DNA from: Escherichia phage KKE7M
DNA length: 64,000 bases
Reading direction: 5' to 3' (one strand)
Sequence record: PQ356295.1
The notes under the pieces were generated by a model. It was not told the origin of the DNA. It searched no databases and was given only the letters and a program-made list of their open reading frames with translations. How positions within the stretch are numbered: position 1 is the first letter of the stretch; every line of letters begins with the position of its first letter. This document shows positions 20,360 through 35,427 of this stretch, piece by piece. Both the position numbers and the translations under genes were made by a program.

Positions 20360-20435
20360 TGGTCGTGGTAAACGGAGTCGAACCGTTGTTTCTCGATTAT
20401 CGGTCGAGTGTACTAACCATCTGTACGATACCACA
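20360..20435 (-). tRNA. tRNA, anticodon GAU (Ile) by hand fold
   Basis: 7 bp acceptor, T-arm AACGG-TTCGACT-CCGTT, anticodon loop CCGATAA, CCA encoded; C at position 33 is unusual. Confidence 0.5.
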
Positions 20436-20440
20436 ATAAT

Positions 20441-20523
20441 TGGCAGCAAGGTGAGGAATCGAACCCCTTGATCTATGGTTTGGAGCCATATTGAGTACCA
20501 TACTCTTTTAAATCTACCCAGCT
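20441..20523 (-). tRNA. tRNA-like, anticodon CCA (Trp), atypical D region
   Basis: clean anticodon arm TATGG-CTCCAAA-CCATA and T-loop TTCGATT, but 26 nt between acceptor and anticodon stem and imperfect acceptor pairing. Confidence 0.35.
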
Positions 20524-20581
20524 ATGAGTTCCTTGAAGTGTCAATGTAACTTAATCATTACACCAGAAGGGAGGTATTTAG

Positions 20582-20660
20582 TGGAGGCGGGAATCGGATT
20601 TGAACCGATGATCTCCAGCATATGAAACTGGCGAGGACGACCAGACTCCTCTATCCCGCG
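20582..20660 (-). tRNA. tRNA-Met (CAU), initiator-like
   Basis: acceptor CGCGGGA with 1-72 mismatch as in bacterial initiator tRNA, loop TTCATAT, T-loop TTCAAAT, CCA encoded. Confidence 0.6.
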
Positions 20661-20675
20661 CAATCTGTAGTAATT

Positions 20676-20760
20676 TGGTAGCTAAGGTGAGACTCGAACT
20701 CACAATCCCTTGGGGCAATACGTTCTAAGCGTATCGTGTATACCATTCCACCACTTAGCC
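20676..20760 (-). tRNA. tRNA-Leu (UAG)
   Basis: class II fold with long variable arm, anticodon loop CTTAGAA, T-arm GTGAG-TTCGAGT-CTCAC, CCA encoded. Confidence 0.65.
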
Positions 20761-20837
20761 ATAATAAGTACACCACTGTAAGAAGCCTCAATGTGCTATT
20801 GACAGTTAACCAAGTCTACTCCTTGGATGGTGTTATT

Positions 20838-20912
20838 TGGTGCAGAGAGATGGTAACGATCCATCCTTTCTACCTTTTCAGGGTAGCACTAATCCGTCTC
20901 AGCTATCTCTGC
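20838..20912 (-). tRNA. tRNA-Phe (GAA)
   Basis: perfect acceptor GCAGAGA/TCTCTGC, anticodon arm CTACC-CTGAAAA-GGTAG, unusual T-loop ATCGTTA. Confidence 0.6.
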
Positions 20913-20917
20913 AAATT

Positions 20918-20993
20918 TGGTCAGTGCGGCAGGACTCGAACCTGCGACCTGAAGCGTCCAAGGCTCCCACGCTACCAACTGCGCTACGCACTG
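20918..20993 (-). tRNA. tRNA-Pro (UGG)
   Basis: perfect 7 bp acceptor, anticodon loop CTTGGAC, T-loop TTCGAGT, CCA encoded. Confidence 0.65.
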
Positions 20994-21000
20994 TAAATCT

Positions 21001-21075
21001 TGGCTGGAGATCTAGGAATCGAACCTAGTCATCACGACTTCAAAGGCCGTTGCCTTCCCACTAGGCTAATCTCCA
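21001..21075 (-). tRNA. tRNA-Gln (UUG)
   Basis: perfect acceptor TGGAGAT/ATCTCCA, anticodon loop CTTTGAA, T-loop TTCGATT, CCA encoded. Confidence 0.65.
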
Positions 21076-21127
21076 ATAAAACTAAAAATCACTTAAAAAG
21101 AACCGCTAGAGTTTGAAGGAGAAAACC

Positions 21128-21154
21128 ATGAGCGAAAAGAGAAATTTTCTCTAG
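21128..21154 (+). other. 8-codon mini-ORF (MSEKRNFL) with strong RBS inside an 8 bp inverted repeat
   Basis: GAAGGAGAAAACC-ATG; flanked by CGCTAGAG (21104-21111) and CTCTAGCG (21149-21156); lies between two tRNA genes. Confidence 0.25.
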
Positions 21155-21174
21155 CGATTCCATTTAAATAATCT

Positions 21175-21249
21175 TGGAGCGAGTAACAGGACTTGAACCT
21201 GCACCTGGAGGGTGGAAACCTCATATGCTACCATTAACACTATACCCGC
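21175..21249 (-). tRNA. tRNA-Gly (UCC)
   Basis: acceptor GCGGGTA with one G-U, anticodon loop TTTCCAC, T-loop TTCAAGT, CCA encoded. Confidence 0.6.
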
Positions 21250-21260
21250 TTAACAATATT

Positions 21261-21290
21261 ACTCTAACATATTATTAGCCCCTTTGTCAA
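21261..21290 (-). promoter_or_regulatory. promoter candidate for tRNA transcript (TTGACA N18 TAGAGT), overlapping a hairpin
   Basis: minus-strand TTGACA at 21290-21285, TAGAGT at 21266-21261, about 12 nt upstream of the tRNA-Gly 5' end; hairpin 21277-21296. Confidence 0.35.
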
Positions 21291-21304
21291 GAGGCTTTTG
21301 ATAT

Positions 21305-21634
21305 TTATTTTAAAATAGTAGATGCACCACGTCTGTTTAGATATGCAACAGTAAAGTCCAAATCACCTATTTCTTCAGGTTCCCACTGACCTTCTAAGCC
21401 ATAGCAAGAACAATGATATGCGTGTACTTCATAAAACAGAGATGTTTTCATATCATAAAAATAAACGTGAGATTCACCTTCATAATATGCACAGTCATAA
21501 GTGGCAGAAAGAATTACAATGTTATCCTTATCTAACTCTACTTCATAATATCTTTCAACATCTTCGATATCATCAAAACCATCGAAAACATTGATGTTAA
21601 AATATTTCTCTAACTCTTTTTCTGTCACATACAC
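21305..21634 (-). CDS. hypothetical protein embedded in tRNA cluster
   Basis: 109 aa acidic ORF with AAAGGAG RBS (GTG start likely); no recognisable domain. Confidence 0.45.
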   Translation of the reverse strand: MYVTEKELEKYFNINVFDGFDDIEDVERYYEVELDKDNIVILSATYDCAYYEGESHVYFYDMKTSLFYEVHAYHCSCYGLEGQWEPEEIGDLDFTVAYLNRRGASTILK

Positions 21635-21651
21635 TCCTTTAGAGTTAAAAT

Positions 21652-21726
21652 TGGTGCTCCCACAAGGACTCGAACCCTGATAAGTTGCTTACAAGGCAAC
21701 CGTAATAGCCGTTATACGATAGGAGC
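21652..21726 (-). tRNA. tRNA-Thr (UGU)
   Basis: acceptor GCTCCTA/TGGGAGC, anticodon arm GTTGC-CTTGTAA-GCAAC, T-loop TTCGAGT, CCA encoded. Confidence 0.6.
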
Positions 21727-21732
21727 AATACT

Positions 21733-21809
21733 TGGACTCGACAGGATTCGATACCTGCAATTCCAGAAGCCTATTGGCGACTGGGGGTTTACCTTAACTC
21801 TACAAGTCC
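21733..21809 (-). tRNA. tRNA-like element without a canonical anticodon arm (possible pseudo-tRNA)
   Basis: 7 bp acceptor GGACTTG/CGAGTCC and T-arm with 8 nt loop TATCGAAT, but the 44 nt core does not fold into D and anticodon arms. Confidence 0.3.
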
Positions 21810-21816
21810 ATAATTC

Positions 21817-21901
21817 TGGCGATGGATCAAGGATTTGAACCTTGCTAGAACTTTCGTTCACGGATTAACAGTCCGTCGCCCAACCACTAGGCCAATCCAT
21901 C
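21817..21901 (-). tRNA. tRNA with anticodon GUU (Asn) but class II-like 15 nt variable arm
   Basis: perfect acceptor GATGGAT/ATCCATC, anticodon arm ACGGA-CTGTTAA-TCCGT, variable arm GAACGAAAGTTCTAG, T-loop TTCAAAT, CCA encoded. Confidence 0.5.
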
Positions 21902-21908
21902 TTTAATT

Positions 21909-21995
21909 TGGTGCAGGTAGTTGGACTCGAACCAACGAAGCCCCGAAGGGCAAGAGATTTACAGTCTCCAGCAATTGCCGCTATGCGATACCTAC
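21909..21995 (-). tRNA. tRNA-Tyr (GUA)
   Basis: class II fold, anticodon loop CTGTAAA, long variable arm with GCCC/GGGC stem, T-loop TTCGAGT, CCA encoded. Confidence 0.6.
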
Positions 21996-22000
21996 GTGTT

Positions 22001-22075
22001 TGGTACATCGTGAAGGATTCGAACCTTCGCTCCCTTGATTAAAAGTCAAGTGCCTTACCGCTTGGCTAACGATGC
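22001..22075 (-). tRNA. tRNA-Lys (UUU)
   Basis: acceptor GCATCGT/ACGATGT, anticodon arm CTTGA-CTTTTAA-TCAAG, T-loop TTCGAAT, CCA encoded. Confidence 0.65.
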
Positions 22076-22435
22076 ATACTCTTTACACCACCGTGTATGT
22101 CCAGCATAAGCCTTTGTACTATGGAATACTGCTCCGCAAACACACACCGTGGTTCTAATTCTGTTTCCCATGTCTTGGGAAATTCTTGTCTTCTTCATGT
22201 GACAAGCATGACACAAAAGTTGACATTTGGCAAGTTCTTCTTGCCATTTAGCCTCCGAACATGAACTCATTCGACTAATATAAAACTTCTTCTCGCTTGA
22301 ATCTTTATGATCAAATTCCAAGTCATCTACAGACCCACAATTAACACATTTACCTCCAAGCTGGAGGATTGCGGAAGCTCTTCGCTTCTGCCACCGAGTT
22401 TTCATGTATTCCCGCATATAATCATTACTTGGCAT
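22055..22435 (-). CDS. HNH homing endonuclease
   Basis: CVNCGS...EFDHKD...LLCHACH motif set; AGGAGG RBS; 3' end overlaps first 21 nt of tRNA-Lys. Confidence 0.7.
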   Translation of the reverse strand: MPSNDYMREYMKTRWQKRRASAILQLGGKCVNCGSVDDLEFDHKDSSEKKFYISRMSSCSEAKWQEELAKCQLLCHACHMKKTRISQDMGNRIRTTVCVCGAVFHSTKAYAGHTRWCKEYASLAKR

Positions 22436-22582
22436 ACATCCTCCTCGTATAAATTATCTTTAAAATAGCCAGTGTTTGCGGCACTTAGCTATGAAGTATT
22501 GGGGTATCGGTAAAGTGGTTGCCGCCACTTGCCGAAGATTTACTCTGCTAAAGTAAGAGTACAAGCTACATTAAAGATAACT

Positions 22583-22668
22583 TGGCGGTAGATGTAGGAC
22601 TTGAACCTACACGCCGTTTCCGACGACAGTTTAGCAAACTGTTGTGGCTACCATTTCACCAATCTACC
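22583..22668 (-). tRNA. tRNA-Ser (GCU)
   Basis: perfect acceptor GGTAGAT/ATCTACC, anticodon arm ACAGT-TTGCTAA-ACTGT, long variable arm, T-loop TTCAAGT, CCA encoded. Confidence 0.65.
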
Positions 22669-22713
22669 ATTTTTAATTATTCAAAACAACCTGAATCTGT
22701 TACTAATTGAATT

Positions 22714-22803
22714 TGGAGGAAGATAATGGAGTCGAACCATCACCGTATCGCTACAATGGGCCAGGGTTCAAACCTGGTTGCGCACCGCTGCGCCCTACCT
22801 TCC
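22714..22803 (-). tRNA. tRNA-Ser (UGA)
   Basis: anticodon arm CCAGG-TTTGAAC-CCTGG, long variable arm, T-loop TTCGACT, CCA encoded. Confidence 0.6.
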
Positions 22804-22867
22804 CGTTATCATACTTTAAATCTAACATAAAACTATCTTGCTTGTCAAGTAGTTTTTAAAAACTTTT

Positions 22868-22949
22868 TGGCCGGGGTGACAGGATTCGAACCTGCATACT
22901 CCAATTACTCGGTTAACGCCTGATTAGAAGTCAGGTGAGATACACCCCG
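22868..22949 (-). tRNA. tRNA-like, anticodon UCU (Arg), apparently lacking a D arm
   Basis: perfect acceptor CGGGGTG/CACCCCG and canonical T-arm, but only 7 nt between acceptor and anticodon stem (CCTGA-CTTCTAA-TCAGG) and 23 nt before the T-arm. Confidence 0.4.
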
Positions 22950-23030
22950 TTTTCACAGTAACTATAACAAAAAACTAAGTAAATGTCAAGATATTTTTAC
23001 TAAAATTATTATTTAAATTGAAGCCTAGGT

Positions 23031-23116
23031 TGGTGCAAGTGGAGGGATTCGAACCCTCAATCATTTAAGCGTTGCGTTTTAAGCACAATGTGTATCACCA
23101 ATTCCACCACACTTGC
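23031..23116 (-). tRNA. tRNA-Leu (UAA)
   Basis: perfect acceptor GCAAGTG/CACTTGC, anticodon loop CTTAAAA, long variable arm, T-arm GAGGG-TTCGAAT-CCCTC, CCA encoded. Confidence 0.65.
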
Positions 23117-23147
23117 ATATAGGAGATGCATAGCACCTCCTTTTAAA

Positions 23148-23223
23148 TGGTGGTTCCCCAGGGTTACAATCCCTGCCCTCGACACTTATGAGGTGTGCGC
23201 TCTCGTCAGTGAGCTATGGAACC
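23148..23223 (-). tRNA. tRNA with anticodon CAU (elongator Met or Ile2), unusual T-loop
   Basis: anticodon loop CTCATAA, D-stem GCTC/GAGC, T-loop ATTGTAA between CAGGG/CCCTG, CCA encoded. Confidence 0.5.
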
Positions 23224-23970: not shown

Positions 23971-25704
23971 TTAGTCAACCTGGATGGTTCCCATAGTACG
24001 AAGAACCTCTACATCAACACGGTTGCGGATATCAGTGAATGTTTCATCACGTCCTTCTACTTGTGGTGTAATAACCTTACCATCCTTGAAGATAACTTGT
24101 AACTCATTGTCTTCATCCTGGATATCTTTAAAAGAAAGATTATCTACAAGAGAAAGATTACCATTGGTATCCTTAACAACCTTAATAAAACCTTTTGCAG
24201 AGCGTTTACCAGGATCAGTTTTAGGCTCCTTACTTACCAAAATTTCGTGTTCACCGATGATGCTACCTGTTGCTTTAACAGCAAAGCCAAAAGTATCTCG
24301 TGTATTGAACTGATAAGTATAACTACCAACACCAAATACAATATTGGAAGCTGCAAAACCTTTCTTCTTCAGTCGGCGTAAGATCTCGTGTTCTCGTTCA
24401 ACAGTAATAGAATCACCATAAATCATACCGATATGCTCATCAAGAACCTTGTAGCCTTTTCGGTTGATAGTACCACCAAACACTTCCCAAAGGATTTGAA
24501 TAGAACCTACTGCTTCACAATAAGGAATCTCATAAGTTTCATCAATACAGTCAGCAACACTACAATCCTGAAGAACATTGTAATACTTATTAACATCAGC
24601 CAAATGAACTACTTCAGTGGCTGTCGCAATACCATTATTTAAAAGATCTTCATAGTTGTCAAAAGATTCAACATTGTATCCTGCAACAACTTTAACCGGA
24701 TCTCCTGAATCTGGACGAATAACAAGACGACCATTTCGTGACATAATGGAATCTTTCAATTCTACCAGAATGCGAGTCAATACAGCCCAATAGTCATAAG
24801 AGTCTGCTACATATGAACAAAAACCTTCTGGAACAATTTCTTCGATATAACGACGAAGAAACTCTTTTTCTGCTACATAACGAAGCCCATCTACATCATC
24901 TTTAAGATGTGGGAAATGTTTCTTCAGATCTTCAACAATAGCTCCAATGTTAGTCGTTGCTACTGAATGTTCTGTTGCCGGAATCGAACCTGCAACAAAC
25001 TGATCATAATCAATACCATAATAGTCATGCACAGTTTCAATAGCCAGAATATTATCTGTTCCTGTGAACGATGCCAAGTGAGCGATACCACTCTTATAAC
25101 CATCTTCGATATTACTTAAACCACGTAGGCTAAAATCATGACACTGGAAGTTAACGTGATCAATATTATCACACGTTGCCATCGCATATGCCATAGCGAT
25201 ACGCTTATACTGAAAAGCTGCTGTGGCATTAGTCATTGTCTTCCAAGTTTCATCTGACAACAGTGTTTCCACATAGTTAGTTAACCAAAAGAATTTTTCT
25301 AAAGTATTATGCACAGTAAATACAGGAACACCAATAGGACACAAAACACCTTCTGGCAGAGATCGAACTTCCAGCGGAAGATAACCTAAATCGTGCAATT
25401 CTCCCCAACACTCAGCAGAAGGAGCAGAAGCACCTAATGCATTCTTAGACATACGATAAAATTTATTTACTGCTGCACTACGAGACATTTTAAAGAAGCC
25501 GTCCCACATAGTTACAAGAGCATCGGTTACTGCTCGACGAATACCTAAGACAATCACACCACGTGCTTCACGATCTGCATAGTGTGCAAAGTTTTTATCA
25601 TTACGAGGAGTTAAATTAGAGAAAATTAGTTTTGTATTTTGGTTGTACATCTGCTTGTGACCAGGTTTATACCAATCAGTAGCAAAAGGTGCAAAAATAT
25701 TCAT
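23971..25704 (-). CDS. nicotinamide phosphoribosyltransferase family protein (NAMPT/NadV-like; could be a Namat-type enzyme)
   Basis: 577 aa with RPDSGDP signature of the NAMPT/NAPRT family; adjacent to Prs-like gene. Confidence 0.75.
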   Translation of the reverse strand: MNIFAPFATDWYKPGHKQMYNQNTKLIFSNLTPRNDKNFAHYADREARGVIVLGIRRAVTDALVTMWDGFFKMSRSAAVNKFYRMSKNALGASAPSAECWGELHDLGYLPLEVRSLPEGVLCPIGVPVFTVHNTLEKFFWLTNYVETLLSDETWKTMTNATAAFQYKRIAMAYAMATCDNIDHVNFQCHDFSLRGLSNIEDGYKSGIAHLASFTGTDNILAIETVHDYYGIDYDQFVAGSIPATEHSVATTNIGAIVEDLKKHFPHLKDDVDGLRYVAEKEFLRRYIEEIVPEGFCSYVADSYDYWAVLTRILVELKDSIMSRNGRLVIRPDSGDPVKVVAGYNVESFDNYEDLLNNGIATATEVVHLADVNKYYNVLQDCSVADCIDETYEIPYCEAVGSIQILWEVFGGTINRKGYKVLDEHIGMIYGDSITVEREHEILRRLKKKGFAASNIVFGVGSYTYQFNTRDTFGFAVKATGSIIGEHEILVSKEPKTDPGKRSAKGFIKVVKDTNGNLSLVDNLSFKDIQDEDNELQVIFKDGKVITPQVEGRDETFTDIRNRVDVEVLRTMGTIQVD

Positions 25705-25775: not shown

Positions 25776-26669
25776 TTAAAAATTCCACACGTATGGAAAT
25801 ACAATTTGTTGTTGCAAATCTGACTGATTCTTAACAAGAACACCGGAATCTTCTTGGATGTTATCTTCCCACACATTAAGAGAATGAATGCAGTCAAAGT
25901 GCTCACTTAACTCTTTAAGACCTTTAGAAAAGATACCGTGTGTAACATATAACTCAATCTTACCTGCGTTACGAGCACGTAGCACTTTAGCCAACTCAAT
26001 AAAAGTTCTACCACCATCACAGATATCATCTACGATCATCAGGTTACGCTTATTGAAATCCTGTACAGAAATGTCTGTACGAACAATAGCACCTGTTGCG
26101 GTATCTCTAACCTTCTCTGCACAGAACACATCTAAAGACATTTTCTTAGATAATTTAAATATTTTCTTAAGAGCACCACCATCAGGGCTAACAAGAGCAA
26201 AATTCTCCATACGTAACTTCCACTTTAAAGTTTCGTAAGCAATCTCTTCTTGAGGTATTACACAGAGTCTGTCAAACACTGCTGGAGTAACATCACTGTG
26301 GGGATCAGCAACGATAACACGTGAGAAATTTAATGAGTTAATTATAGAAGCAAATGCTTTAACTCCGAATGCTTCTCCAGGCTCACACACTCTGTCTTGT
26401 CGTGCATACGGTACATACAGCATGAGTAAATCAACACAATATGGTTTATGATATAGCATATTGTCCAATGCATTCTTAGTCATAACCAAAGTCATCAAGT
26501 CTTTAGCAGATCTTACTTCTAAAGTGAGTAAGATTCTGTCTGTAGCATGATTGAAACCTGATAGATTCGTATCTAATTGAACATGTTGTTCTCCACCAGA
26601 GAATGTAAACACTTTAACGTCTACATCAGTAACATAACAGTCAACACCATGCAGAATACTAACTTTCAT
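25776..26669 (-). CDS. ribose-phosphate pyrophosphokinase family protein (Prs-like; could be an ADP-ribose pyrophosphokinase)
   Basis: 297 aa with VSPDGGA and DDICDGGRT PRPP-binding loop motifs. Confidence 0.8.
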   Translation of the reverse strand: MKVSILHGVDCYVTDVDVKVFTFSGGEQHVQLDTNLSGFNHATDRILLTLEVRSAKDLMTLVMTKNALDNMLYHKPYCVDLLMLYVPYARQDRVCEPGEAFGVKAFASIINSLNFSRVIVADPHSDVTPAVFDRLCVIPQEEIAYETLKWKLRMENFALVSPDGGALKKIFKLSKKMSLDVFCAEKVRDTATGAIVRTDISVQDFNKRNLMIVDDICDGGRTFIELAKVLRARNAGKIELYVTHGIFSKGLKELSEHFDCIHSLNVWEDNIQEDSGVLVKNQSDLQQQIVFPYVWNF

Positions 26670-27078: not shown

Positions 27079-27447
27079 ATGAGGGTCACACGTTACGTTA
27101 GAAGTGAAACAATAGATGGAGGCATAATGTATGCTTTCTACGATGATAAAACTTTTTGTTCTGCGTTCTATGAAGAAGACTTGTCTATGGAATGGCAACA
27201 AATCATCTTCTTACTTGACATTTTGAAAAGAAGAGATAACTTTGAAGGTATTGAGTGGACAATGGGAAGCAAAGTTATCGTTGCAGGTTTAAGCAAACAT
27301 GAGTTGCTTGACTTAGACTGTAAACTTTGTAATTATCAATTCTCAAAACGTTTACCATTAGAAAGACAGTTAGGAGTTGAGATTCATGTTGACTTGGGCG
27401 ATGGAGTATCCTATACTCTCAACAATCATAGTGCTGACATTAATTAG
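27079..27447 (+). CDS. hypothetical early protein
   Basis: 122 aa ORF with GGAGGAAATA RBS. Confidence 0.5.
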   Translation: MRVTRYVRSETIDGGIMYAFYDDKTFCSAFYEEDLSMEWQQIIFLLDILKRRDNFEGIEWTMGSKVIVAGLSKHELLDLDCKLCNYQFSKRLPLERQLGVEIHVDLGDGVSYTLNNHSADIN

Positions 27448-27513
27448 TGGAATCACAAAGTGCGTCACAAGCATTTGCGATTGTTTAACACATTTTAAAC
27501 AAAGGAAAAATAA

Positions 27514-27711
27514 ATGAATCAAACTATGCAAACAATCTATAGAGTCATCCTTGGTGAGTTCCATGTTGTTAAGTCAACATTGAATTATGAAGAAGCTAAA
27601 GAGAATTTCTTGCTGTGGGTTGAAGCATTCTCTGAAGTTGAAAAGGTGAGTTACAATTGTGTAACTTTAACTGCTGATCACGTACCTGTATTGGAGTTTA
27701 TTAAGAAATGA
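27514..27711 (+). CDS. hypothetical protein
   Basis: 65 aa ORF with AAAGGAAAAATAA RBS. Confidence 0.45.
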   Translation: MNQTMQTIYRVILGEFHVVKSTLNYEEAKENFLLWVEAFSEVEKVSYNCVTLTADHVPVLEFIKK

Positions 27712-27947
27712 AAAAAGAAATTTTAACTGATGTAACATATTCTTGTATTAGCAAAGGTGGTTTATATCGTGTAGTTGGCTTCCCTAAACCAGCAGGTGTA
27801 TCTAAAGTATTTGATCCTGTTGTGATCTACGAAGATGTAAGGACTGGTCAACAGTATTGGCGATTCCAGCAAGATTTCTTACACCGCATGGAGGTTGTTG
27901 ATGGCGAAAACACCGAAGAAGCGATCCGTAACAAAGCGCGCATCTAA
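27708..27947 (+). CDS. hypothetical protein
   Basis: 79 aa ORF, ATGA overlap with upstream gene. Confidence 0.45.
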   Translation: MKKEILTDVTYSCISKGGLYRVVGFPKPAGVSKVFDPVVIYEDVRTGQQYWRFQQDFLHRMEVVDGENTEEAIRNKARI

Positions 27948-28224
27948 AGATGGGGCGGCAAAAGCCGCTCCTAAGAAGGAAAAATTTGACACAGAGGCTT
28001 TTGTCTTTGATACTCCAATAGAAAAGATAGAAGAAGCTCTTGCTAAATTTGAAGAACGTGATGCAGATCCTTTTACAGAAGATGAATTATACTGGTTTGG
28101 CTGGTGGGTTTTGAATCTACCAGAAGCTAAAAAACGAGGAATGAAGTCAGTTCCTATTTGTGCAAAAGAATCGGCTGTGTTAGGTTTATACGAGAAGCCT
28201 AAAAGAAGGAGCAAAAAGAAATGA
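27901..28224 (+). CDS. Lys-rich basic protein, possible DNA-binding
   Basis: ATG at 27901 with GGAGG RBS; KKRSVTKRASK N-terminus and KPKRRSKKK C-terminus. Confidence 0.45.
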   Translation: MAKTPKKRSVTKRASKDGAAKAAPKKEKFDTEAFVFDTPIEKIEEALAKFEERDADPFTEDELYWFGWWVLNLPEAKKRGMKSVPICAKESAVLGLYEKPKRRSKKK

Positions 28225-28499
28225 GAAAAACTTATCTGAAGTGTTTGTCTGTTGTGCAAAATGAATGGTATTCAGGTTTGCTGACAGCAGGTAAGAAATA
28301 TGAAGTGCTCAATAAACCAGGCGCAAGATTTTCATTAATCAAGAACGACGAAGGCACTGAAATGCTTATTTCAGTTGCAGATTCTGTGTATGGTACTTTT
28401 GAGTTGGTCTATGAATATGTACCAATTATTCTTGAATACAGCGGTACAAACAAACCTTACACAGCTTTAGATGTGATCAACAACAAAAGGAATAAGTAA
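28221..28499 (+). CDS. hypothetical protein
   Basis: 92 aa ORF. Confidence 0.45.
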   Translation: MRKTYLKCLSVVQNEWYSGLLTAGKKYEVLNKPGARFSLIKNDEGTEMLISVADSVYGTFELVYEYVPIILEYSGTNKPYTALDVINNKRNK

Positions 28500-28690
28500 T
28501 GTTCCTTATTTATTCAGGTAAAGCCAAATACATGCAAGGTGTAAAGCGTGTAGAAGTAGCAGATACTGTAACTATAGGAAAATCCTTTATTCTTTATTTG
28601 TTTTATATCAATGGAGAAAGATTTGCTGTTTCTAAGAAGTTGGTAGATAATGGTAAAACTTGGAAAGAAGAGAAACAGGAAGGGGGTTGA
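28499..28690 (+). CDS. hypothetical protein
   Basis: 63 aa ORF. Confidence 0.4.
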   Translation: MFLIYSGKAKYMQGVKRVEVADTVTIGKSFILYLFYINGERFAVSKKLVDNGKTWKEEKQEGG

Positions 28691-29034
28691 TAGTGGCTAA
28701 AATTCTTTGGTTAGACGATTTAAGAGATCCTAAAGATTATGGTTATGAGGATGCCATTTGGTTAAAATCTTTTGAGGATTGGTTAGCTTTTGTTTCAGAT
28801 GAAGATAATTTCAATAATATCTCAGAGATACACTTCGACAATGATCTTGGAGAAGATCAGGAAGGATATCATGCATTCTTAGACGTAGAATGTATGTTGT
28901 ACGTGGGTGAATGGGATGCTCTTAAAACTATCTATGTTCATACATCAAATCCTTCTGCTGCTGGTAAATATATGTTAGCTAAGGAAAATTTTATTTCATC
29001 CTATGGTGTTGAAATTAAACGTGTTAACTATTAA
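28660..29034 (+). CDS. hypothetical protein
   Basis: ORF in track; likely GTG start at 28693 after GGAAGGGGG. Confidence 0.45.
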   Translation: MERRETGRGLIVAKILWLDDLRDPKDYGYEDAIWLKSFEDWLAFVSDEDNFNNISEIHFDNDLGEDQEGYHAFLDVECMLYVGEWDALKTIYVHTSNPSAAGKYMLAKENFISSYGVEIKRVNY

Positions 29035-29042
29035 GGAGGTGT

Positions 29043-29189
29043 TATGCTTTATGTTATTTGGGTAGATGAAGGGGATGGGTTTTATGTATACAAACACACT
29101 AACCATTGGCCCGATGTAGAAAAAGCACTTGCAACTTTTGAAGATTGCTTTTACGATATATATACAGACGAAGAGTATGAAGAGAATTG
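29043..29189 (+). CDS. small hypothetical protein (48 aa)
   Basis: ATG with AAGGAGGTGTT RBS; below track cutoff. Confidence 0.4.
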
Positions 29190-29549
29190 ATGTGCGCTAC
29201 TAATCAACATGATATTTGTTACCAACCTCTTACCTGGATTGGTGAGGATCACTATGCTCAACGTGTTATAGTCTGCGCTGCGAATAAGTATATTCTCAAC
29301 AATGGCGAAGAGTTAATTATTCCTTGTGTTAGGCATGCAAATCCTGTACTATCTGCACAACTTAATGTTTTAAAAGATGCAGGATTGATCGATAAACTGT
29401 TTTGCTTACCTGATAATCAAGGGTTTATTGATCAGTATTATAATTGGTGGAGTCGCAAAGATGCTTATATCATTGCAGATAACGCCAAACAAATTAACTA
29501 TGAAAGAAATGGTCACGACAGTGAACTATTCAGCGAGGGATTATACTAA
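29187..29549 (+). CDS. hypothetical protein
   Basis: 120 aa ORF. Confidence 0.45.
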   Translation: MMCATNQHDICYQPLTWIGEDHYAQRVIVCAANKYILNNGEELIIPCVRHANPVLSAQLNVLKDAGLIDKLFCLPDNQGFIDQYYNWWSRKDAYIIADNAKQINYERNGHDSELFSEGLY

Positions 29550-30100
29550 TGTTTATTACAAGTGATTTGCATTTTATGCACAAACGTATTCGAGAGTTTG
29601 CTCCTGCATATCGCCCGTGGGAAGATATGGAGCATATGACAGAAGCCCTGATCGAAGCATGGAATAAATGTGCCACAACACCAGGAGTAAAGATGTACCA
29701 TCTTGGGGACTTCTGTTTCGGGACTGAAGAAGATACCCGTAAGATTGCTTCCCGTCTCCAAGGGGATATTACTTACTGTGTTGGGAACCATGATTACAGT
29801 AAACACAGAAAAGTGCTTGCAGAGTATGGAGAAGTGGTTTATTATGACGAAGTGAAATATCAGAAGCTGTTTTTCGTCTTAAGCCATTACCCTATGGCTG
29901 CCTGGAATAAACAAGGGCATGGATCAATCATGCTACACGGGCACTCTCATGGATCATTCCCTGATCATTTGTATGGGAAAATGTTGGATGTTGGTTGGGA
30001 CGCACACGGAAAAATCTTGCATTTTGACGAAATTATCTCTATTATGGATAAGCGTGATATTGTTGTTGTAGATCATCATAAGATAATCAAAGGAGATTAA
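29549..30100 (+). CDS. calcineurin-like metallophosphoesterase
   Basis: DLHF, GDxxxG, GNHD and HGHSH metal-binding motifs. Confidence 0.7.
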   Translation: MFITSDLHFMHKRIREFAPAYRPWEDMEHMTEALIEAWNKCATTPGVKMYHLGDFCFGTEEDTRKIASRLQGDITYCVGNHDYSKHRKVLAEYGEVVYYDEVKYQKLFFVLSHYPMAAWNKQGHGSIMLHGHSHGSFPDHLYGKMLDVGWDAHGKILHFDEIISIMDKRDIVVVDHHKIIKGD

Positions 30101-30101
30101 G

Positions 30102-31034
30102 GTGGCTAAGTTCAACTGTGATGACCTGATTGCAAAAGGTTTAGTGCATAAAAAAGAAGTTAAATCTGGAGAGTATGCTGGTCTTGCTGTACTTAAATAC
30201 AAAAACAATGTATTCTGGGACAATTTGTGGGACGTAGACAAACGCCTTCTAGATTGTCGTGGGTTGGTTGTTGACTCAGAAGACAATGTTGTTATTTGGC
30301 CTTTTACTAAAATCTTTAATCGTTTTGAAAATGGTACAGATCTTCCAGCAGACCAACTTGTAGATGCTGTCCGTAAAGTAAACGGTTTTATGGCATCTGT
30401 AGGTGTGTACAAAGGGAAACTTGTTGTATCAACAACAGGGAGCCTAGAATCAGATTTTGCAATTATGGCAAAGAACCGTATTGTTTCCGAGTGTGACGAC
30501 ATAGAGTATTTCATTAAGTGGACAGAAAGTGCAAAAGCAACTTTTCTTTTTGAAATCTGTGATCCTTCTGATCCACATATTGTCGAAGAAGAACCAGGCG
30601 CGTACTTAATTGGAGCAAGAATTCAAAACCTGGATGGGACAAGTTTCATGTTACCTGAAGGTGTTCTTGATGGGATTGCATCTGTTACAAAGTTTAAACG
30701 TCCTGAAGTTTATCCGATGATTAAATTTTCAGATGTTGTTGAAATGTCTAAACATTGTAGACACGAAGGCTTTGTTGTTCGTGAAACAAACTATCCGTTT
30801 AACTTACTCTTAAAGATTAAGTCACCATACTATCTTGCTAAGAAGTTCCTTATGCGTGGTGGTAATAAGAAGTGGGATATGATTTGGGACAACCCAAACA
30901 ATGCTAAACAAATTGTTGACGAAGAATATTATACTTTGCTAGAATGGCTTCGAAATAATTTTACGAAGGTTCAATGGGCTGCTCTAGATTCACAAGAGCG
31001 ACGTAAAGAAATAGAAAACTTCTTTGGAGGCTAA
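30102..31034 (+). CDS. nucleotidyltransferase-fold ligase, probable RNA ligase
   Basis: motif I-like KVNG, motif IV EGFVVRE, motif V LLKIK; flanked by phosphoesterase and kinase genes. Confidence 0.45.
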   Translation: MAKFNCDDLIAKGLVHKKEVKSGEYAGLAVLKYKNNVFWDNLWDVDKRLLDCRGLVVDSEDNVVIWPFTKIFNRFENGTDLPADQLVDAVRKVNGFMASVGVYKGKLVVSTTGSLESDFAIMAKNRIVSECDDIEYFIKWTESAKATFLFEICDPSDPHIVEEEPGAYLIGARIQNLDGTSFMLPEGVLDGIASVTKFKRPEVYPMIKFSDVVEMSKHCRHEGFVVRETNYPFNLLLKIKSPYYLAKKFLMRGGNKKWDMIWDNPNNAKQIVDEEYYTLLEWLRNNFTKVQWAALDSQERRKEIENFFGG

Positions 31035-31439
31035 ATGAAACAACTTATCATTTTACGTGGTGTTTCAGGCGCAGGTAAATCTACAGTAGCAGAAATTATT
31101 TCTGAAGGTTATTGGCCTATCTGTGAGGCAGATCAATATCATTACACAGAAAACGGTGTTTACGATTGGAAGCCAGAAAATGTAGGTAAAGCACACGCAT
31201 GGTGTCAGAGTATTGTTCGTGATGCTATGGCATCTAATATTAAAAAGATTATTGTCTCTAACACTTCAACCACAGAGAAAGAACTTAAACCTTATTTTAC
31301 TCTTGCTGAAGAGTTTGGTTATCAAGTTATCTCTTTAGTTGTTGAAAATAGGCACGGTAACGACTCAATTCATGAGGTTCCACAACATACTCGTGATCAG
31401 CAAGAGAAACGTCTTCGCAGTTCACTTAAGCTACAATAA
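31035..31439 (+). CDS. P-loop kinase, probable polynucleotide kinase
   Basis: Walker A GVSGAGKST at N-terminus; 134 aa kinase-only size. Confidence 0.5.
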   Translation: MKQLIILRGVSGAGKSTVAEIISEGYWPICEADQYHYTENGVYDWKPENVGKAHAWCQSIVRDAMASNIKKIIVSNTSTTEKELKPYFTLAEEFGYQVISLVVENRHGNDSIHEVPQHTRDQQEKRLRSSLKLQ

Positions 31440-31448
31440 GGAGAGTGT

Positions 31449-31769
31449 ATGGAAATTTATTCTGGTGAAGGTAAGTATTTTACAGTAGTCGATAATGGTG
31501 AAATTATTATTTATCGCTACGGAAGTGAGTGGAGGAACGAGACAGGAGACGGTTATATCTTATCTTTGCTCCATTTGATTAATGATCTTAAGGAAGAACT
31601 TGAAGAAACAAAACGTTCATATGATGACCAAGTAGATTCATTAGAAAACATTATTTCAGATCTAAATGAAGAAGTTTGTTATTTGAGTGGACAAGTTTCA
31701 GAGTTAACACTGGAATGTGAAGATTTAGGTGATGTTATTGCAGATTTAAATGAACGTCTTAAGGATTAA
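31449..31769 (+). CDS. hypothetical acidic coiled-coil protein
   Basis: 106 aa ORF. Confidence 0.45.
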   Translation: MEIYSGEGKYFTVVDNGEIIIYRYGSEWRNETGDGYILSLLHLINDLKEELEETKRSYDDQVDSLENIISDLNEEVCYLSGQVSELTLECEDLGDVIADLNERLKD

Positions 31770-31772
31770 TAT

Positions 31773-31997
31773 ATGAGTACAGCTATCTATGTTAAAGGTG
31801 TAAGCGAAGATCAACAAATGTTATTCTCATTTGGTGAGAATACTGAAATGGAAGATATGTTTAATGATATCCTTGATGCCCTTTCTTCGGAAGGGTTCAC
31901 AATGATTACATACTTTATGGCAACATCTTCTGAATACGTTGATACAGATCTTGAAGACTTGATGGAAGAGATTCAAACTCTTGTGTATAATTGGTAA
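31773..31997 (+). CDS. hypothetical protein
   Basis: 74 aa ORF. Confidence 0.4.
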   Translation: MSTAIYVKGVSEDQQMLFSFGENTEMEDMFNDILDALSSEGFTMITYFMATSSEYVDTDLEDLMEEIQTLVYNW

Positions 31998-32194
31998 GGG
32001 TAACTATGACATTTATTGAAGAACTAACGAGAATTGCAAACGCACCTAACAGTAGCGAAGATCCTTACTTTATGGTGGATGATTACACTGGTGGTAATAT
32101 TGATGATGCCTATGAACTAGGCAGACTACACGGTGAAATTGAAATGGCTAAATGGGTTCTTTCGCAACTGGAGGTTAAAGATGAAACAAACTAA
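31991..32194 (+). CDS. hypothetical protein
   Basis: 67 aa ORF. Confidence 0.4.
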   Translation: MVRVTMTFIEELTRIANAPNSSEDPYFMVDDYTGGNIDDAYELGRLHGEIEMAKWVLSQLEVKDETN

Positions 32195-33296
32195 TCCTAC
32201 ATTATATGGTAAAACTTCTACAGGTAAAATTAAACAGTGGTCAGTCTATACCGAAGGTAGTGTTGTAACTGTTGCTCATGGTCAATTAGGTGGAAAGATT
32301 ACTAGCAAATCTTATACAGCAGAACCTAAAAATATTGGTCGCTCAAATGAAACAACAGCAGAAGAACAAGCTGAAATAGAAGCTCTTGCCAAATGGACAA
32401 AGCAACTTAAGAATGGGTATTATAAAACAAAAGAGGAAGCTGAAAACCATGTTCCTTCCACACCCATGAAATGTCAGGATTATAAAGATTATGCTGATCG
32501 TGTTTTGTTCCCAGGTTATGCACAATATAAATTGAATGGCCTACGTTCAATGATTAACATGCAAGGTGAATGTTTATCTAAAGCTGGGGAGGTATATAAA
32601 CTTCCACCTCACTGGAAAGAAATTCCAACCTTCATTAAAGAAGTAGTTGGTCATCCTCTTGACGGTGAAGTTTTTGCTGGCTTGGGTGTCCTTAGCCTTC
32701 AACAAATTAATAGTGCGTGGAAAAAGCATAATGCTAACACTCCGCTTCTTAAATACTATGTATATGATGTTCCTGTGCCATCTGTACCATTTGAGAAGAG
32801 GGTTCAAGTTTTAGCTGCTCTAAAAGAAGTTGTTGAAGATAAAGGTTTAGATGAACTTATTTGTGTAGTACATACAGAATACATTGAAAACCAAGAGCAG
32901 TTTGATGAATTCTATGCAAAGGCTCTACGTGAAAAAGCGGAAGGTGTGGTGTATCGTAACGCACAAGGTGTTTACGAGTTTGATAAACGTTCTTATGATG
33001 TTATTAAACGTAAACCACGGCAGACTCTTGAAGTTAAGGTAGTCAGTGCAAAACGTGATAAAAATGGTGACGGGGTATTGACAGGCGAGATGGAAAATGG
33101 TAAAGTAGTCGAATTCCTGATGCGTAAGGATTCAGATGAAACCATTAACTATCGTAAAGAAGAAAATGCTTTGACACTTATTGGTCAATTTGTTGAAATT
33201 GAGTACGAAGAATTTTCAGACGAAGGTATTCCTACCAAGCCTGTTGGGGTACGTGTACGTAAGATGATTCCAGGTACTTGGGAACCAGCAGAGTAA
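32181..33296 (+). CDS. ATP-dependent DNA ligase
   Basis: likely start ATG 32181 with GGAGG RBS; motif I KLNGLR, motif IV EGVVYR, motif V VIKRK. Confidence 0.65.
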   Translation: MKQTNPTLYGKTSTGKIKQWSVYTEGSVVTVAHGQLGGKITSKSYTAEPKNIGRSNETTAEEQAEIEALAKWTKQLKNGYYKTKEEAENHVPSTPMKCQDYKDYADRVLFPGYAQYKLNGLRSMINMQGECLSKAGEVYKLPPHWKEIPTFIKEVVGHPLDGEVFAGLGVLSLQQINSAWKKHNANTPLLKYYVYDVPVPSVPFEKRVQVLAALKEVVEDKGLDELICVVHTEYIENQEQFDEFYAKALREKAEGVVYRNAQGVYEFDKRSYDVIKRKPRQTLEVKVVSAKRDKNGDGVLTGEMENGKVVEFLMRKDSDETINYRKEENALTLIGQFVEIEYEEFSDEGIPTKPVGVRVRKMIPGTWEPAE

Positions 33297-33305
33297 GAGG
33301 TAAAT

Positions 33306-33485
33306 ATGGTATTAGCAACAGTTCTTATGATGTTAATTGCTATTGCAATTATAATGTTAGCCTCGTTTCCAGTGGACAAATGGTACTGCAATTTTTGTAG
33401 ATTTGTTGTTTTCCTCTGTGCTGGGGCGTATATGGGCGAATCGGTAGTTCGCATTAGTGTTTTGTTAGAACAATATTTTAAATAA
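33306..33485 (+). CDS. small membrane protein (59 aa, two hydrophobic segments)
   Basis: ATG with GAGG RBS; below track cutoff. Confidence 0.35.
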   Translation: MVLATVLMMLIAIAIIMLASFPVDKWYCNFCRFVVFLCAGAYMGESVVRISVLLEQYFK

Positions 33486-33494
33486 GGAGAAACA

Positions 33495-34217
33495 ATGATC
33501 GAGAATTTTTTCAAACAAGTAAAAGTGGACAATAGCTTCTTTATCAAAGCTGCCGATCAAATTGTTGCTTGGAATGCTAAGGCACGTGGTGGAGTAACTC
33601 CAGAGTTTACTCAAGAGATGTTTGAAGCTCAACTTTCTTTTGTACGAGAAGAACTTAAAGAGTTCCAAGCAGCAGCACAGGAAAATGATCACGTTGAATT
33701 ACTTGATGCAGCAGCAGATATTTTTGTGGTAGCATCCTACCTGGCGTTTATGTTCTTTGGTAAAGAAGGTGTTGATAAAGCTCTGGAAATGCCGACAGGA
33801 GATGTTCTGGCAGAAAACATCTACGATGTTATCATTGAATTTGATAAAATGGTAGAAAATGACTTGCAATTTGCCCTAATGTCTCTTACACTTACACGTA
33901 TGGCACGAGATACTTTGGTACGTTCTGTTTATAACGAGAAGAAGGTTATGCGTGAAGTGTTGAATAGCAATGAGTCCAAGTATCCTACCAAGAAGCAACT
34001 CCTGGCTATTTGGGAAACTAAGGATATTATTGAAGCTCTTGAAAAAGAATGTGATGCTATCGAGATGCGAAGCAAAGATCGTGCAGAAGGTTCTTATACT
34101 GGGGTACACGCTGTATATAACGAAGTTCAAAAGGTGTATGTATTCTTTGATGACAAAGGTAAAATTATGAAACCATCTACCTTTGTTAAACCTAATATCG
34201 CAGCAATCATTGCTTAA
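33495..34217 (+). CDS. MazG-like nucleotide pyrophosphohydrolase (candidate)
   Basis: N-terminal EExxEF...ELLDAAADI all-alpha NTP-PPase pattern. Confidence 0.4.
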   Translation: MIENFFKQVKVDNSFFIKAADQIVAWNAKARGGVTPEFTQEMFEAQLSFVREELKEFQAAAQENDHVELLDAAADIFVVASYLAFMFFGKEGVDKALEMPTGDVLAENIYDVIIEFDKMVENDLQFALMSLTLTRMARDTLVRSVYNEKKVMREVLNSNESKYPTKKQLLAIWETKDIIEALEKECDAIEMRSKDRAEGSYTGVHAVYNEVQKVYVFFDDKGKIMKPSTFVKPNIAAIIA

Positions 34218-34221
34218 GAAA

Positions 34222-34241
34222 TAAAGCCCCTTCGGGGGCTT
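34222..34241 (+). terminator. hairpin AAGCCCC-TTCG-GGGGCTT
   Basis: 7 bp GC stem with UUCG loop after the 33495..34217 gene. Confidence 0.45.
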
Positions 34242-34253
34242 ATTGGAGGTATT

Positions 34254-34532
34254 ATGTTAACAGCAGAAGATATCTTTAAACACGGTTTGCGTCAGGTGAT
34301 CAAATCCTTGAAGAATGCAGGTATTGAAGATATCACACAGGAAATTGTTGGTTTAGAAAAAGAAGGTAAGAGAACAGAATTTAAGTTTTACACAGAAGAA
34401 CAGTGGTTGAGTAACCCGCAAAACAAAGCTAATGAGGCTGTTAGTCTGTTTGGTAAATCTTATAAAGGATTTAAATATCCTGATCATATTGTCGAATATG
34501 ATGGTGTAAAATATTTTGTAGTTGTTATTTGA
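34254..34532 (+). CDS. hypothetical protein
   Basis: 92 aa ORF. Confidence 0.45.
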   Translation: MLTAEDIFKHGLRQVIKSLKNAGIEDITQEIVGLEKEGKRTEFKFYTEEQWLSNPQNKANEAVSLFGKSYKGFKYPDHIVEYDGVKYFVVVI

Positions 34533-34542
34533 GGAGAAAACT

Positions 34543-35427
34543 ATGTTTGCTAAAAATTTCAAATCTTGCGTAACCCTGATTTCTGGTGATGGCCTGTCTA
34601 TTTCAGCACTGAACACAGTAACAGACAAACCGCTGGATTTTGTTGTGGCACAGGGGCAACAAGCACATACCATTGGTCTTGTTCGTTTTGAAGATGATGG
34701 TTCCTATGTAAAAGTGTTCTCTGGTTTAGAGGTTATTAAAGTAGGGCAATCTGTTAAGAAAGTTAACAAGAAGAAAGTTAAACGCATTCTTAATGAAAAA
34801 CTCCAGGAGATGGAACAAGAGTTTATTGCTGCAAATCCTACTAAAGAATTCTTCTTGGATAAAGAAAGTAAAAAAGCAATTGAGGCTGATATCGTGTTTT
34901 CTCTGCTTCCAGAAACAGAGGCAGATGATTTCTACAACTATGTTGTTGTAGACACTGAAAACAGTATTACCTATGTTCTTAATGGTTCTAAGAAAATTAG
35001 TGAAGATATTGCTGTATTTCTTCGTGAGGTGTTGGGTACTTTCCCAGTTCTGCCGTTTAGTGTACACGAAGAAGCCATTATTAAAGGTTTTGATACCATC
35101 TTAGAAGAACATGAGGCTGAACGACTGACCCTGGGTAATTATATTAAACTTGAAGATTCTGAAGGTGTGGTTGTATGGAGTAAAGAGTCCCTTTATGAAT
35201 CTCGTGCAGTAGAACTTATGGAAGATGGTAAGCACGTTGTTGCCATTGGCCTGGAATATGACGGTTTCGTTAACTTTATTGTCGATAAAGAATTTAAGTT
35301 GAGTGGTATTAAATTCCCTAAATACTTTAACGATGAAGAAGGATCTTTTGAAGCATCTGTCCTTCTGTGCTTTAATGAAATCCGTGGTATTATGCAAGAC
35401 CTTATCAAGTCAACTATTCAAAAATAA
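34543..35427 (+). CDS. hypothetical protein, weak RdgC-like resemblance
   Basis: ORF 34522..35427 in track; likely ATG 34543 with AGGAGAAAACT RBS; about 295 aa acidic. Confidence 0.3.
   Translation: MFAKNFKSCVTLISGDGLSISALNTVTDKPLDFVVAQGQQAHTIGLVRFEDDGSYVKVFSGLEVIKVGQSVKKVNKKKVKRILNEKLQEMEQEFIAANPTKEFFLDKESKKAIEADIVFSLLPETEADDFYNYVVVDTENSITYVLNGSKKISEDIAVFLREVLGTFPVLPFSVHEEAIIKGFDTILEEHEAERLTLGNYIKLEDSEGVVVWSKESLYESRAVELMEDGKHVVAIGLEYDGFVNFIVDKEFKLSGIKFPKYFNDEEGSFEASVLLCFNEIRGIMQDLIKSTIQK

Follow-up and report, generated by a model that had tools for sequence, protein, structure and literature searches.

Results

Three adjacent genes at 29549-31439

The DNA analyzed here is a 64,000-nucleotide stretch (hereafter the window) of Escherichia phage KKE7M (PQ356295.1), an E. 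coli myovirus of the Stephanstirmvirinae (Justusliebigvirus/Phapecoctavirus type). An initial annotation, made from the letters alone, had drawn attention to three consecutive genes at 29549-31439, read as a metallophosphoesterase (MPP), a ligase and a P-loop kinase that together could repair cleaved tRNAs. Plus-strand open reading frames (ORFs) lie exactly at these coordinates, and each predicted activity draws support from profiles, structure models and active-site residues. ORF1 (29549-30100) encodes a stand-alone MPP of 183 residues that belongs to the Aquifex aq_1665-like family of small MPPs and is a putative healing enzyme for 2',3'-cyclic-phosphate or 3'-phosphate ends. ORF2 (30102-31034), which begins with GTG, encodes a predicted ATP-dependent RNA ligase of the Rnl1 family with 310 residues, Lys92 being encoded at 30375-30377. 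ORF3 (31035-31439) encodes a minimal, stand-alone P-loop kinase of the polynucleotide-kinase type, with 134 residues and with the P-loop at G9-T17, Asp33 and the lid residue Arg106 as landmarks. The profile hidden Markov model searches that had been proposed for the three ORFs returned phrog_547 for the MPP, PF09511 for the ligase, and AAA_33 and phrog_505 for the kinase. Between 28600 and 31500, identity amounts to 99.2% with Escherichia phage EC_OE_11 and to 98.2% with BASEL phage PaulScherrer (Bas60), in whose genome the homologues are labelled "putative phosphoesterase", "RNA ligase" and "polynucleotide kinase".

The genes are tightly packed. The start codon of the MPP gene overlaps the stop codon of an upstream ORF, a homologue of T4 Arn.3, in the sequence TAATG. 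A single base separates the TAA of the MPP gene (30098-30100) from the GTG of the ligase gene, which is preceded by AAGGAG, and the ATG of the kinase gene follows immediately after the TAA of the ligase gene, with GGAGG ahead of it. Each of the three ORFs has its own stop codon and its own Shine-Dalgarno sequence, in a packing that resembles a translationally coupled operon. A scan for consensus promoters and terminators did not exceed the shuffled expectation (27 versus 24.5 and 4 versus 3.1, respectively), and no transcript ends were assigned.

A predicted RNA ligase of the Rnl1 type

The ORF2 product matched Pfam family PF09511 (RNA_lig_T4_1) with 53 bits, well above the cut-off of 28.3. 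It had no match at E < 0.1 to the NCBIfam equivalog model for T4 RnlA (TIGR02308), and the NCBIfam scan was empty for the ligase and the MPP alike. A search of the PDB with the single sequence also gave no match, and a profile built from homologues was needed. Once 16 homologues (49-85% identical) were aligned, the resulting profile found T4 Rnl1 (2C5U, E = 3.5e-10) with every catalytic motif in register.

The three motif strings on which the ligase had first been recognized (KVNG, EGFVVRE and LLKIK) are present at K92, E222 and K238. They form part of the segments K92-V-N-G95, H-E222-G-F-V-V-R-E and L-L-K238-I-K240, which correspond to motifs I (KxxG), IV (EG) and V (KxK) of the covalent nucleotidyltransferases; motif III (E) is represented by E151. 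Residues R53, K70, F72, K92, N94, G95, E151, E222, G223, K238 and K240 were invariant among the homologues. In the profile alignment, R53, K70, F72, K92 and G95 were placed on T4 Rnl1 residues R54, K75, F77, K99 and G102, and E151, E222, G223, K238 and K240 on E159, E227, G228, K240 and K242. The adenylatable lysine, the absence of which would have spoken against a ligase, is thus present as K92, the counterpart of T4 K99.

The AlphaFold (AF2) model of the protein had a predicted local distance difference test score (pLDDT) of 88.5. Foldseek placed T4 Rnl1 first (E = 3e-13, TM score 0.61-0.65) and the fungal Trl1 ligase domain (Trl1-LIG) next (E ~1e-12), and none of the 50 Foldseek matches listed was a Pnkp ligase domain. 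ORF2 very probably encodes an RNA ligase. The subfamily is represented in 614 isolated phage genomes, including phages of Escherichia, Pseudomonas, Vibrio, Klebsiella and Acinetobacter, among others.

The kinase is a minimal stand-alone protein

The ORF3 product matched AAA_33 (6e-10) and the polynucleotide kinase family phrog_505 (6e-9). Here too, the single-sequence PDB search was weak, and a homologue-built profile was needed. Its best PDB matches, with modest E-values, were Pnkp1 (4XRP, 1.6e-6), T4 Pnk (1LY1, 4.5e-5) and CthPnk (4GP7, 4.6e-4), and the L-seryl-tRNA(Sec) kinase PSTK was also among the top matches. A possible relation to unrelated small-molecule enzymes had been named as a point that would undermine the assignment. 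The best solved relatives are polynucleotide kinases of RNA repair, and matches to sugar kinases (gluconokinase) were limited to the P-loop region.

All 20 kinase homologues (51-89% identical) were 126-145 residues long and had an invariant P-loop (G9-VSGAGKS-T17), D33 and R106. They also kept A32-D33, N76-T77 and the lid motif R106-H-G...H-x-V-P within E104-x-R106-H107...H113-x-V-P116. The profile alignment with T4 Pnk extended over the full length and placed D33 on D35. The window kinase thus shares with T4 Pnk the layout of P-loop, Asp and lid Arg. T4 Pnk R38, which contacts the phosphate on the 3' side of the acceptor nucleotide, has a nearly invariant histidine (H36, in D-Q-Y-H) at its position. 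The 134-residue protein stops after the lid, and the HAD (DxDxT) 3'-phosphatase domain is absent. The statement that the architecture differs from that of T4 was therefore accurate: there is a kinase without HAD phosphatase and a separate, linked MPP instead. ORF3 probably encodes a 5'-OH polynucleotide kinase.

The metallophosphoesterase has an intact metal site

The ORF1 product matched phrog_547 ("phosphoesterase") at 4.5e-55, and its profile matched 1XM7 at 1.6e-21. Pfam Metallophos_2 was found at E = 3.7e-4 with 21 bits, which is under the 27-bit Pfam cut-off. All motifs of the calcineurin-like superfamily for the dinuclear metal center (DxH, GD, GNH(D/E), H, GH and GxH) are there, as D6-x-H8, G53-D54, G79-N80-H81-D82, H113, G131-H132 and H134, and were invariant in 21 homologues. 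This invariance makes the chemistry clear, namely phosphoester hydrolysis at a two-metal center. The protein is of the aq_1665-like type and not of the lambda-phosphatase/Pnkp type, and its nearest characterized structural neighbours are the generic phosphodiesterases MJ0936, YfcE and LpxH.

Conservation and rearrangement of the trio

Gene neighbourhoods were compared in 80 ligase-centred IMG/VR loci, in which the ligase was 40-96% identical to that of the window, with a radius of 6 kb unless stated otherwise. When the neighbouring ORFs were clustered, shadow ORFs opposite the ligase and MPP genes made up large groups, which were removed. The kinase family was present near the ligase in 73 of the 80 loci and the MPP family in 65, and in 59 all three genes were on one strand. 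By our own estimate, a single-copy gene placed at random in a genome of 100-150 kb would fall within 6 kb with a chance of about 10%. When the ligases were clustered at 55% identity, 18 of the 23 clusters had all three genes in one locus, and 21 had the MPP family within 6 kb. Gene order varied: MPP>ligase>kinase (27 loci), kinase>ligase>MPP (22), MPP>ligase>cREC>kinase (6), the order of the window, with cREC (described below) first (3), and others. Median gaps were 35 nt between kinase and ligase and 160 nt between MPP and ligase. The trio is thus a conserved, rearranging module present in many phages.

The ligase profile, run against 1.8 billion representative proteins, returned 6268 relatives, some of which are fusion proteins. 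They include proteins (P0385, P0405, P0458, P0394, P0442, P0467 and P0498) in which the ligase is fused to a kinase, in either order, and the kinase part scored 66-156 bits on the window-kinase profile. The relatives of the ligase subfamily also included one Metallophos-ligase protein and trifunctional kinase-Metallophos-ligase proteins of 700-812 residues (P0421, P0452, P0484 and about 20 others), which probably correspond to phrog_8238. The ligase of these proteins is of the Rnl1-type subfamily of the window and not a Pnkp module. Their N-terminal half is Pnkp-like, with TIGR04075 scores of 79-146 bits that are far under the cut-off; their kinase matches the window-kinase profile weakly. Their MPP domain is of the lambda/ApaH/PrpE type and is missed by the window-MPP profile; the window MPP was thus recruited independently, and its link to the ligase is one of gene neighbourhood only. 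The logic of kinase, MPP and Rnl1-type ligase nevertheless recurs across the relatives.

Neighbouring genes

Contrary to what had first been thought, the set extends beyond the trio: the neighbourhood, in the form described for rV5-like phages, also takes in cREC, MazG and a sirtuin, which in the window is distant. The accessory gene for cREC, a cyclic-phosphate-processing receiver-like protein, lies upstream on the plus strand (28660-29034; PF20274, 7.9e-14; the annotated start in relatives is at about 28693). In 2021, the Iyer/Aravind group defined cREC together with its association with RNA ligases (PMC7824862), and its predicted role is also described in PMC9503650. The window protein is 48% identical to bas54_0208, which is sited between ligase and sirtuin in Bas54, and cREC was present in 26 of 160 loci.

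Between cREC and MPP lies the plus-strand gene for the 120-residue T4 Arn.3 homologue (29187-29549; phrog_839). A tblastn search found it in 1535 phage records, mostly T4-like, where it is labelled arn.3 or "anti-restriction nuclease" (often a mis-annotation). It adjoins the ligase only in loci of the window type and in locus L154. We considered whether it might be the sirtuin or another repair factor; given its family, its occurrence mostly in T4-like genomes and its rare position beside the ligase, it is probably not a core part of the module. Among close relatives, the Arn.3 gene is kept in L004, and L005 has no detectable cREC; the order of MPP, DNA ligase and MazG is unchanged in relatives of the L004/L008 type.

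Downstream, an ATP-dependent DNA ligase gene (32133-33296) begins 0.7 kb after the trio; three small ORFs lie in between, and RdgC is also encoded downstream. A gene for a MazG-like nucleotide pyrophosphohydrolase follows on the plus strand (33495-34217; PF01503, 3.2e-7; phrog_671). In PaulScherrer (L001, 13907-14739), two extra ORFs of 209 and 63 residues, without Pfam match, lie between DNA ligase and MazG and are lacking in the corresponding interval of the window (33296-33495). This interval is also about 0.6 kb longer in L003 than in L007. The extra ORFs may be a mobile insertion.

The sirtuin gene (SIR2; 62074-62889, plus strand; PF02146, 1.5e-20) lies 30.6 kb from the trio. Its product is 55% identical to the SIR2 protein of the rV5-like locus L085 (7724-8500), encoded there directly after the kinase, and 49% identical to bas54_0207, encoded in the rV5-like phage Bas54 (MaxBurger) after cREC, which in turn follows the ligase. 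MPP, ligase, kinase, cREC and SIR2 all have 35-49% identical orthologues in Bas54, where the five genes are contiguous. A sirtuin was found in about 19 of 160 loci. Beside the sirtuin gene of the window lie an HNH-like ORF (61344-62084) and the gene for a C5 DNA methylase (59035-60024). In PaulScherrer, two proteins without Pfam match, bas60_0186 (184 residues; L164, 22801-23355) and bas60_0197 (190 residues; 28378-28950), are labelled "putative aminoacyl-tRNA synthetase" and are encoded near the sirtuin and a lambda-phosphatase-like gene; the ORF before the sirtuin differs in the window, being the HNH-like one.

A second MPP of the window, a homologue of the lambda Ser/Thr phosphatase, is encoded on the plus strand at 56128-56868. 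It matched 1G5B at 4e-29 and is 98% identical to PaulScherrer bas60_0195. Only a few loci (L009, L071/L131, L095 and L155) encode an MPP of this type at a distance of up to 6 kb from the ligase.

Upstream of the repair genes, the minus strand carries NAMPT-like (23971-25704) and phosphoribosyl-pyrophosphate (PRPP)-synthetase-like (25776-26669) genes. Of the 80 loci, 26 have the former and 31 the latter at no more than 4 kb from the ligase. Their recurrence fits a link between nicotinamide adenine dinucleotide (NAD+) salvage and repair, or plain shared synteny. Beyond them lies a minus-strand tRNA cluster (20360-23223). The number of tRNAs is somewhat lower than the approximately 18 first suggested: ARAGORN called 15 and Rfam 14, with a union of 16. 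One tRNA-like element (22871-22949, minus strand, 38.6 bits) was found by Rfam and not called by ARAGORN, and the tRNA-Ser(TGA) (22714-22803) and tRNA-Met (23148-23223) called by ARAGORN are under the Rfam gathering score. The initial annotation had set the trio beside this cluster. The cluster does exist, but it lies 6.3 kb upstream and on the other strand. Both the NAMPT-like gene and the PRPP-synthetase-like gene, as well as several small plus-strand ORFs, stand between it and the trio, so that the link is loose.

Discussion

A candidate heal-and-seal module

With a probability of about 0.68, we read the trio as a co-translated RNA heal-and-seal module that re-joins RNAs, probably tRNAs, after cleavage by nucleases of bacterial defence and serves as an accessory counter-defence. 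The MPP would remove a 2',3'-cyclic phosphate or a 3'-phosphate to leave a 3'-OH, a step that the upstream cREC may assist. The 134-residue kinase would phosphorylate the 5'-OH, and the Rnl1-type ligase, acting via a Lys92-AMP intermediate, would seal the 3'-OH and 5'-phosphate ends. The analysis established the domain identities, the intact active sites, the operon-like packing and the conserved linkage and fusions; that the substrates are RNA ends and tRNA, which exact reaction the MPP carries out, and that the module serves counter-defence is what we infer. By analogy with T4 Rnl1 and fungal Trl1, breaks in tRNA anticodon loops would be the most plausible substrate, and the tRNA cluster is a candidate source of substrates or a candidate parallel counter-defence. 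The nearest experimental data are in the supplement of the HIDEN-SEQ preprint, in which the ligase, kinase and phosphoesterase genes of Bas54 bear many transposon insertions on E. coli K-12 (means of 140-260) and rnlA of T4 and Bas37 bear few (36/16 and 6/8). The proteins of the Bas54 trio are 35-47% identical to those of the window. We read this tolerance as non-essentiality, which fits a conditional, accessory counter-defence role and speaks against a structural role like that of T4 gp63. For the adjacent MPP as the 3'-end healing enzyme, our confidence is lower than for the other two assignments, and the balance of the evidence tips slightly in its favour.

Among the closest known systems is the pair of T4 Pnkp (PseT) and Rnl1 (RnlA/gp63), which counters the anticodon nuclease PrrC. 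To judge from sequence, the same three steps (3' healing, 5' phosphorylation and sealing) are represented in the window. The ligase belongs to the same family as T4 Rnl1, and the essential T4 residues are conserved except for K119. The genes of the trio are contiguous, whereas T4 pseT and rnlA are set apart by other genes.

Bacterial Pnkp (Clostridium thermocellum; TIGR04075; partner Hen1), a single polypeptide, and the split Capnocytophaga Pnkp1-Rnl-Hen1 system likewise combine kinase, MPP and ligase. The kinase profile matched Pnkp1 best and CthPnk as well, and relatives of the ligase subfamily are fused to Pnkp-like kinase-MPP halves. The window differs in having three polypeptides, a ligase of the Rnl1/Trl1 type and an MPP that is not of the lambda-phosphatase type, and among the ORFs that were scanned from 27079 to 35427 there was no Hen1 and no methyltransferase domain. 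The first description of the trio as a "split Pnkp-like" set therefore holds as a functional analogy and fails as a statement of homology, and as an evolutionary description we reject it. The module is predicted to act like T4 Pnkp with Rnl1 and like bacterial Pnkp, with end-healing enzymes that are not orthologous to theirs.

Fungal and plant Trl1 combine a ligase, a kinase and a cyclic phosphodiesterase (CPD) domain in this order. The ligase domain matches the window ligase, and ligase-kinase fusions of the same order occur among the relatives (P0385, P0405), but the system of the window lacks the 2H CPD domain.

The architecture is already noted in the literature and in genome annotations, and the RNA repair prediction has been published independently in two papers. 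For Escherichia phage V5 and Proteus phage Mydo, Iyer, Burroughs, Anantharaman and Aravind (2022; PMC9503650, section 3.7.3) described a sirtuin-linked, type-2 RNA repair neighbourhood. Its components, a T4-like ligase, cREC, a nucleotide kinase, MazG and a calcineurin-like phosphoesterase, are all found in the window, but the sirtuin is 30.6 kb off and the gene order is cREC>Arn.3>MPP>ligase>kinase. The MPP, called occasional in that study, is the rule in our sample (65 of 80 loci), and cREC and sirtuin are in the minority. For a homologous kinase and ligase of the Pakpunavirus Adele, restoration of tRNAs was proposed in 2025 (PMC12846349), and the kinase was likewise noted to lack the 3'-phosphatase domain, unlike that of T4.

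Several observations weigh against the proposed module or parts of it. The position of T4 Rnl1 K119 is taken by an invariant threonine in the ligase (T112, in S-T-T-G). In addition, the window ligase (310 residues, compared with 374 in T4 Rnl1) has a C-terminal helical region of about 70 residues (241-310) in place of the tRNA-specificity domain of about 120 residues. In view of both differences, tRNA specificity should not be assumed. The tRNA genes are outside the trio operon, and the tRNA-nicking retron Eco2 still protects against Stephanstirmvirinae. As for the MPP, its closest solved relative, aq_1665, is an uncharacterized protein. Among the 80 best MPP-centred loci, a ligase was encoded within 6 kb in 32 and not nearby in 48, and among the relatives found with the ligase profile the MPP family was never fused to a ligase or kinase. 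Two IMG/VR relatives (L004 and L008; 153 and 149 kb) keep cREC and MPP with no ligase or kinase detectable within 6 kb, so that the MPP may have an independent role; this pattern suggests that ligase and kinase come and go together and leave the MPP in place. An unlinked alternative candidate for 3'-end healing is the lambda-phosphatase homologue at 56128-56868. Finally, our literature searches, including those on Phapecoctavirus, Vequintavirinae and Stephanstirmvirinae, turned up no biochemical or genetic tests of any member of the module.

Alternative explanations

An NAD+-linked, yeast-like route, as proposed by Iyer et al. (PMC9503650) for the rV5/Mydo neighbourhood, is the alternative that survives best, and we consider it unlikely. 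Here, cREC or the MPP would open the cyclic phosphate to a 2'-phosphate and 3'-OH, kinase and ligase would join the ends, and the sirtuin would remove the junction 2'-phosphate by ADP-ribosyl transfer, as an analogue of Tpt1/KptA. NAMPT and PRPP synthetase would supply NAD+, and MPP and MazG would clear by-products derived from ADP-ribose. The cREC gene upstream of the trio and the position of SIR2 directly after kinase or cREC in rV5-like loci, with an orthologue in the window, are consistent with this route. So are the NAMPT-like and PRPP-synthetase-like genes that recur near the ligase and stand beside the region in the window, and the ligase model, which fits fungal Trl1-LIG nearly as well as T4 Rnl1. 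However, sirtuin (about 19 of 160 loci) and cREC (26 of 160) are rare and the MPP is common (65 of 80 ligase loci), which indicates that the core module does not need them, and the sirtuin of the window is far from the trio. Moreover, sirtuins are not known to remove 2'-phosphates from RNA.

A broader version, in which the whole constitutes a biochemically new heal-and-seal route, is about equally doubtful. The aq_1665-type MPP would then represent an unrecognized class of RNA 2',3'-cyclic phosphodiesterase/3'-phosphatase, and its partner would be the smallest polynucleotide kinase known. The route would have further help in enterobacterial phages from cREC and from a sirtuin that strips 2'-phosphates off RNA with NAD+ from phage NAMPT and PRPP synthetase, a new sirtuin chemistry analogous to that of Tpt1/KptA.

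Slightly harder to sustain is the explanation that ligase and kinase alone are the repair pair, with the MPP kept nearby by synteny and acting on small molecules, for instance as a phosphodiesterase of nucleotides or second messengers. Healing of 3' ends would then occur elsewhere, for example by the product of 56128-56868. The frequent occurrence of the MPP family without ligase, the lack of fusions to the ligase, the relatives that still have the MPP without ligase and kinase, and the generic phosphodiesterases among its structural neighbours all point in this direction. So does the presence of a lambda-phosphatase homologue in the window, as lambda phosphatase has 2',3'-cyclic phosphodiesterase activity (PMC2190708) and the MPP domains of the trifunctional relatives are of the lambda/ApaH/PrpE type. 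Against it stands the linkage of the MPP to the ligase, seen in 65 of 80 loci and 21 of 23 clusters, in at least four gene orders and with a median gap of 160 nt, where about 10% would be expected by chance. In the window itself, MPP stop and ligase start are one base apart, and lambda-phosphatase-like genes are near the ligase in a handful of loci only.

We regard it as highly improbable that kinase and MPP heal DNA nicks with 5'-OH and 3'-phosphate ends for the nearby ATP-dependent DNA ligase, or have a general nucleic-acid role in replication or recombination. T4 Pnkp accepts DNA as well as RNA, 41 of the 80 loci have a DNA ligase gene no more than 4 kb from the RNA ligase, the window has one 0.7 kb downstream of the trio, and the region also encodes RdgC, exonucleases and enzymes of nucleotide metabolism. 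The kinase, however, is fused to Rnl1-type ligases and not to DNA ligases, and it sits much closer to the RNA ligase (median gap of 35 nt) than to the DNA ligase.

Least likely of all, the ligase might act mainly in tail-fibre attachment, like T4 gp63 in its second activity, with unrelated neighbours; the gp63 name is carried over in PHROG and GenBank annotations, but all catalytic ligase residues are invariant, the conserved kinase linkage and fusions would be left unexplained, and the Bas54 gene for the orthologue, unlike rnlA of T4 and Bas37, bears many transposon insertions on K-12 (see above).

Significance

Defence systems that cleave tRNA are common and include PrrC, RloC, PARIS, retrons, Schlafen-like nucleases and OLD. 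To our knowledge, T4 Pnkp with Rnl1 is the sole phage repair pathway that has been studied experimentally. The module described here is far more widespread than the T4 pathway and differs from it in the end-healing enzymes. Relative to the experimentally characterized systems it is a variant, composed of an Rnl1-type ligase, a stand-alone mini-Pnk and an aq_1665-type MPP.

The discovery value is limited by the earlier publication of the prediction and its presence in genome annotations, and the main value lies in a well-defined target for biochemistry and counter-defence genetics. The module is of relevance to therapeutic phages, as it concerns Phapecoctavirus, Vequintavirus and Pakpunavirus. 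Its characterization might yield compact RNA-end-modifying enzymes, and would reveal which host nucleases are neutralized and give the aq_1665-type MPP family a function.

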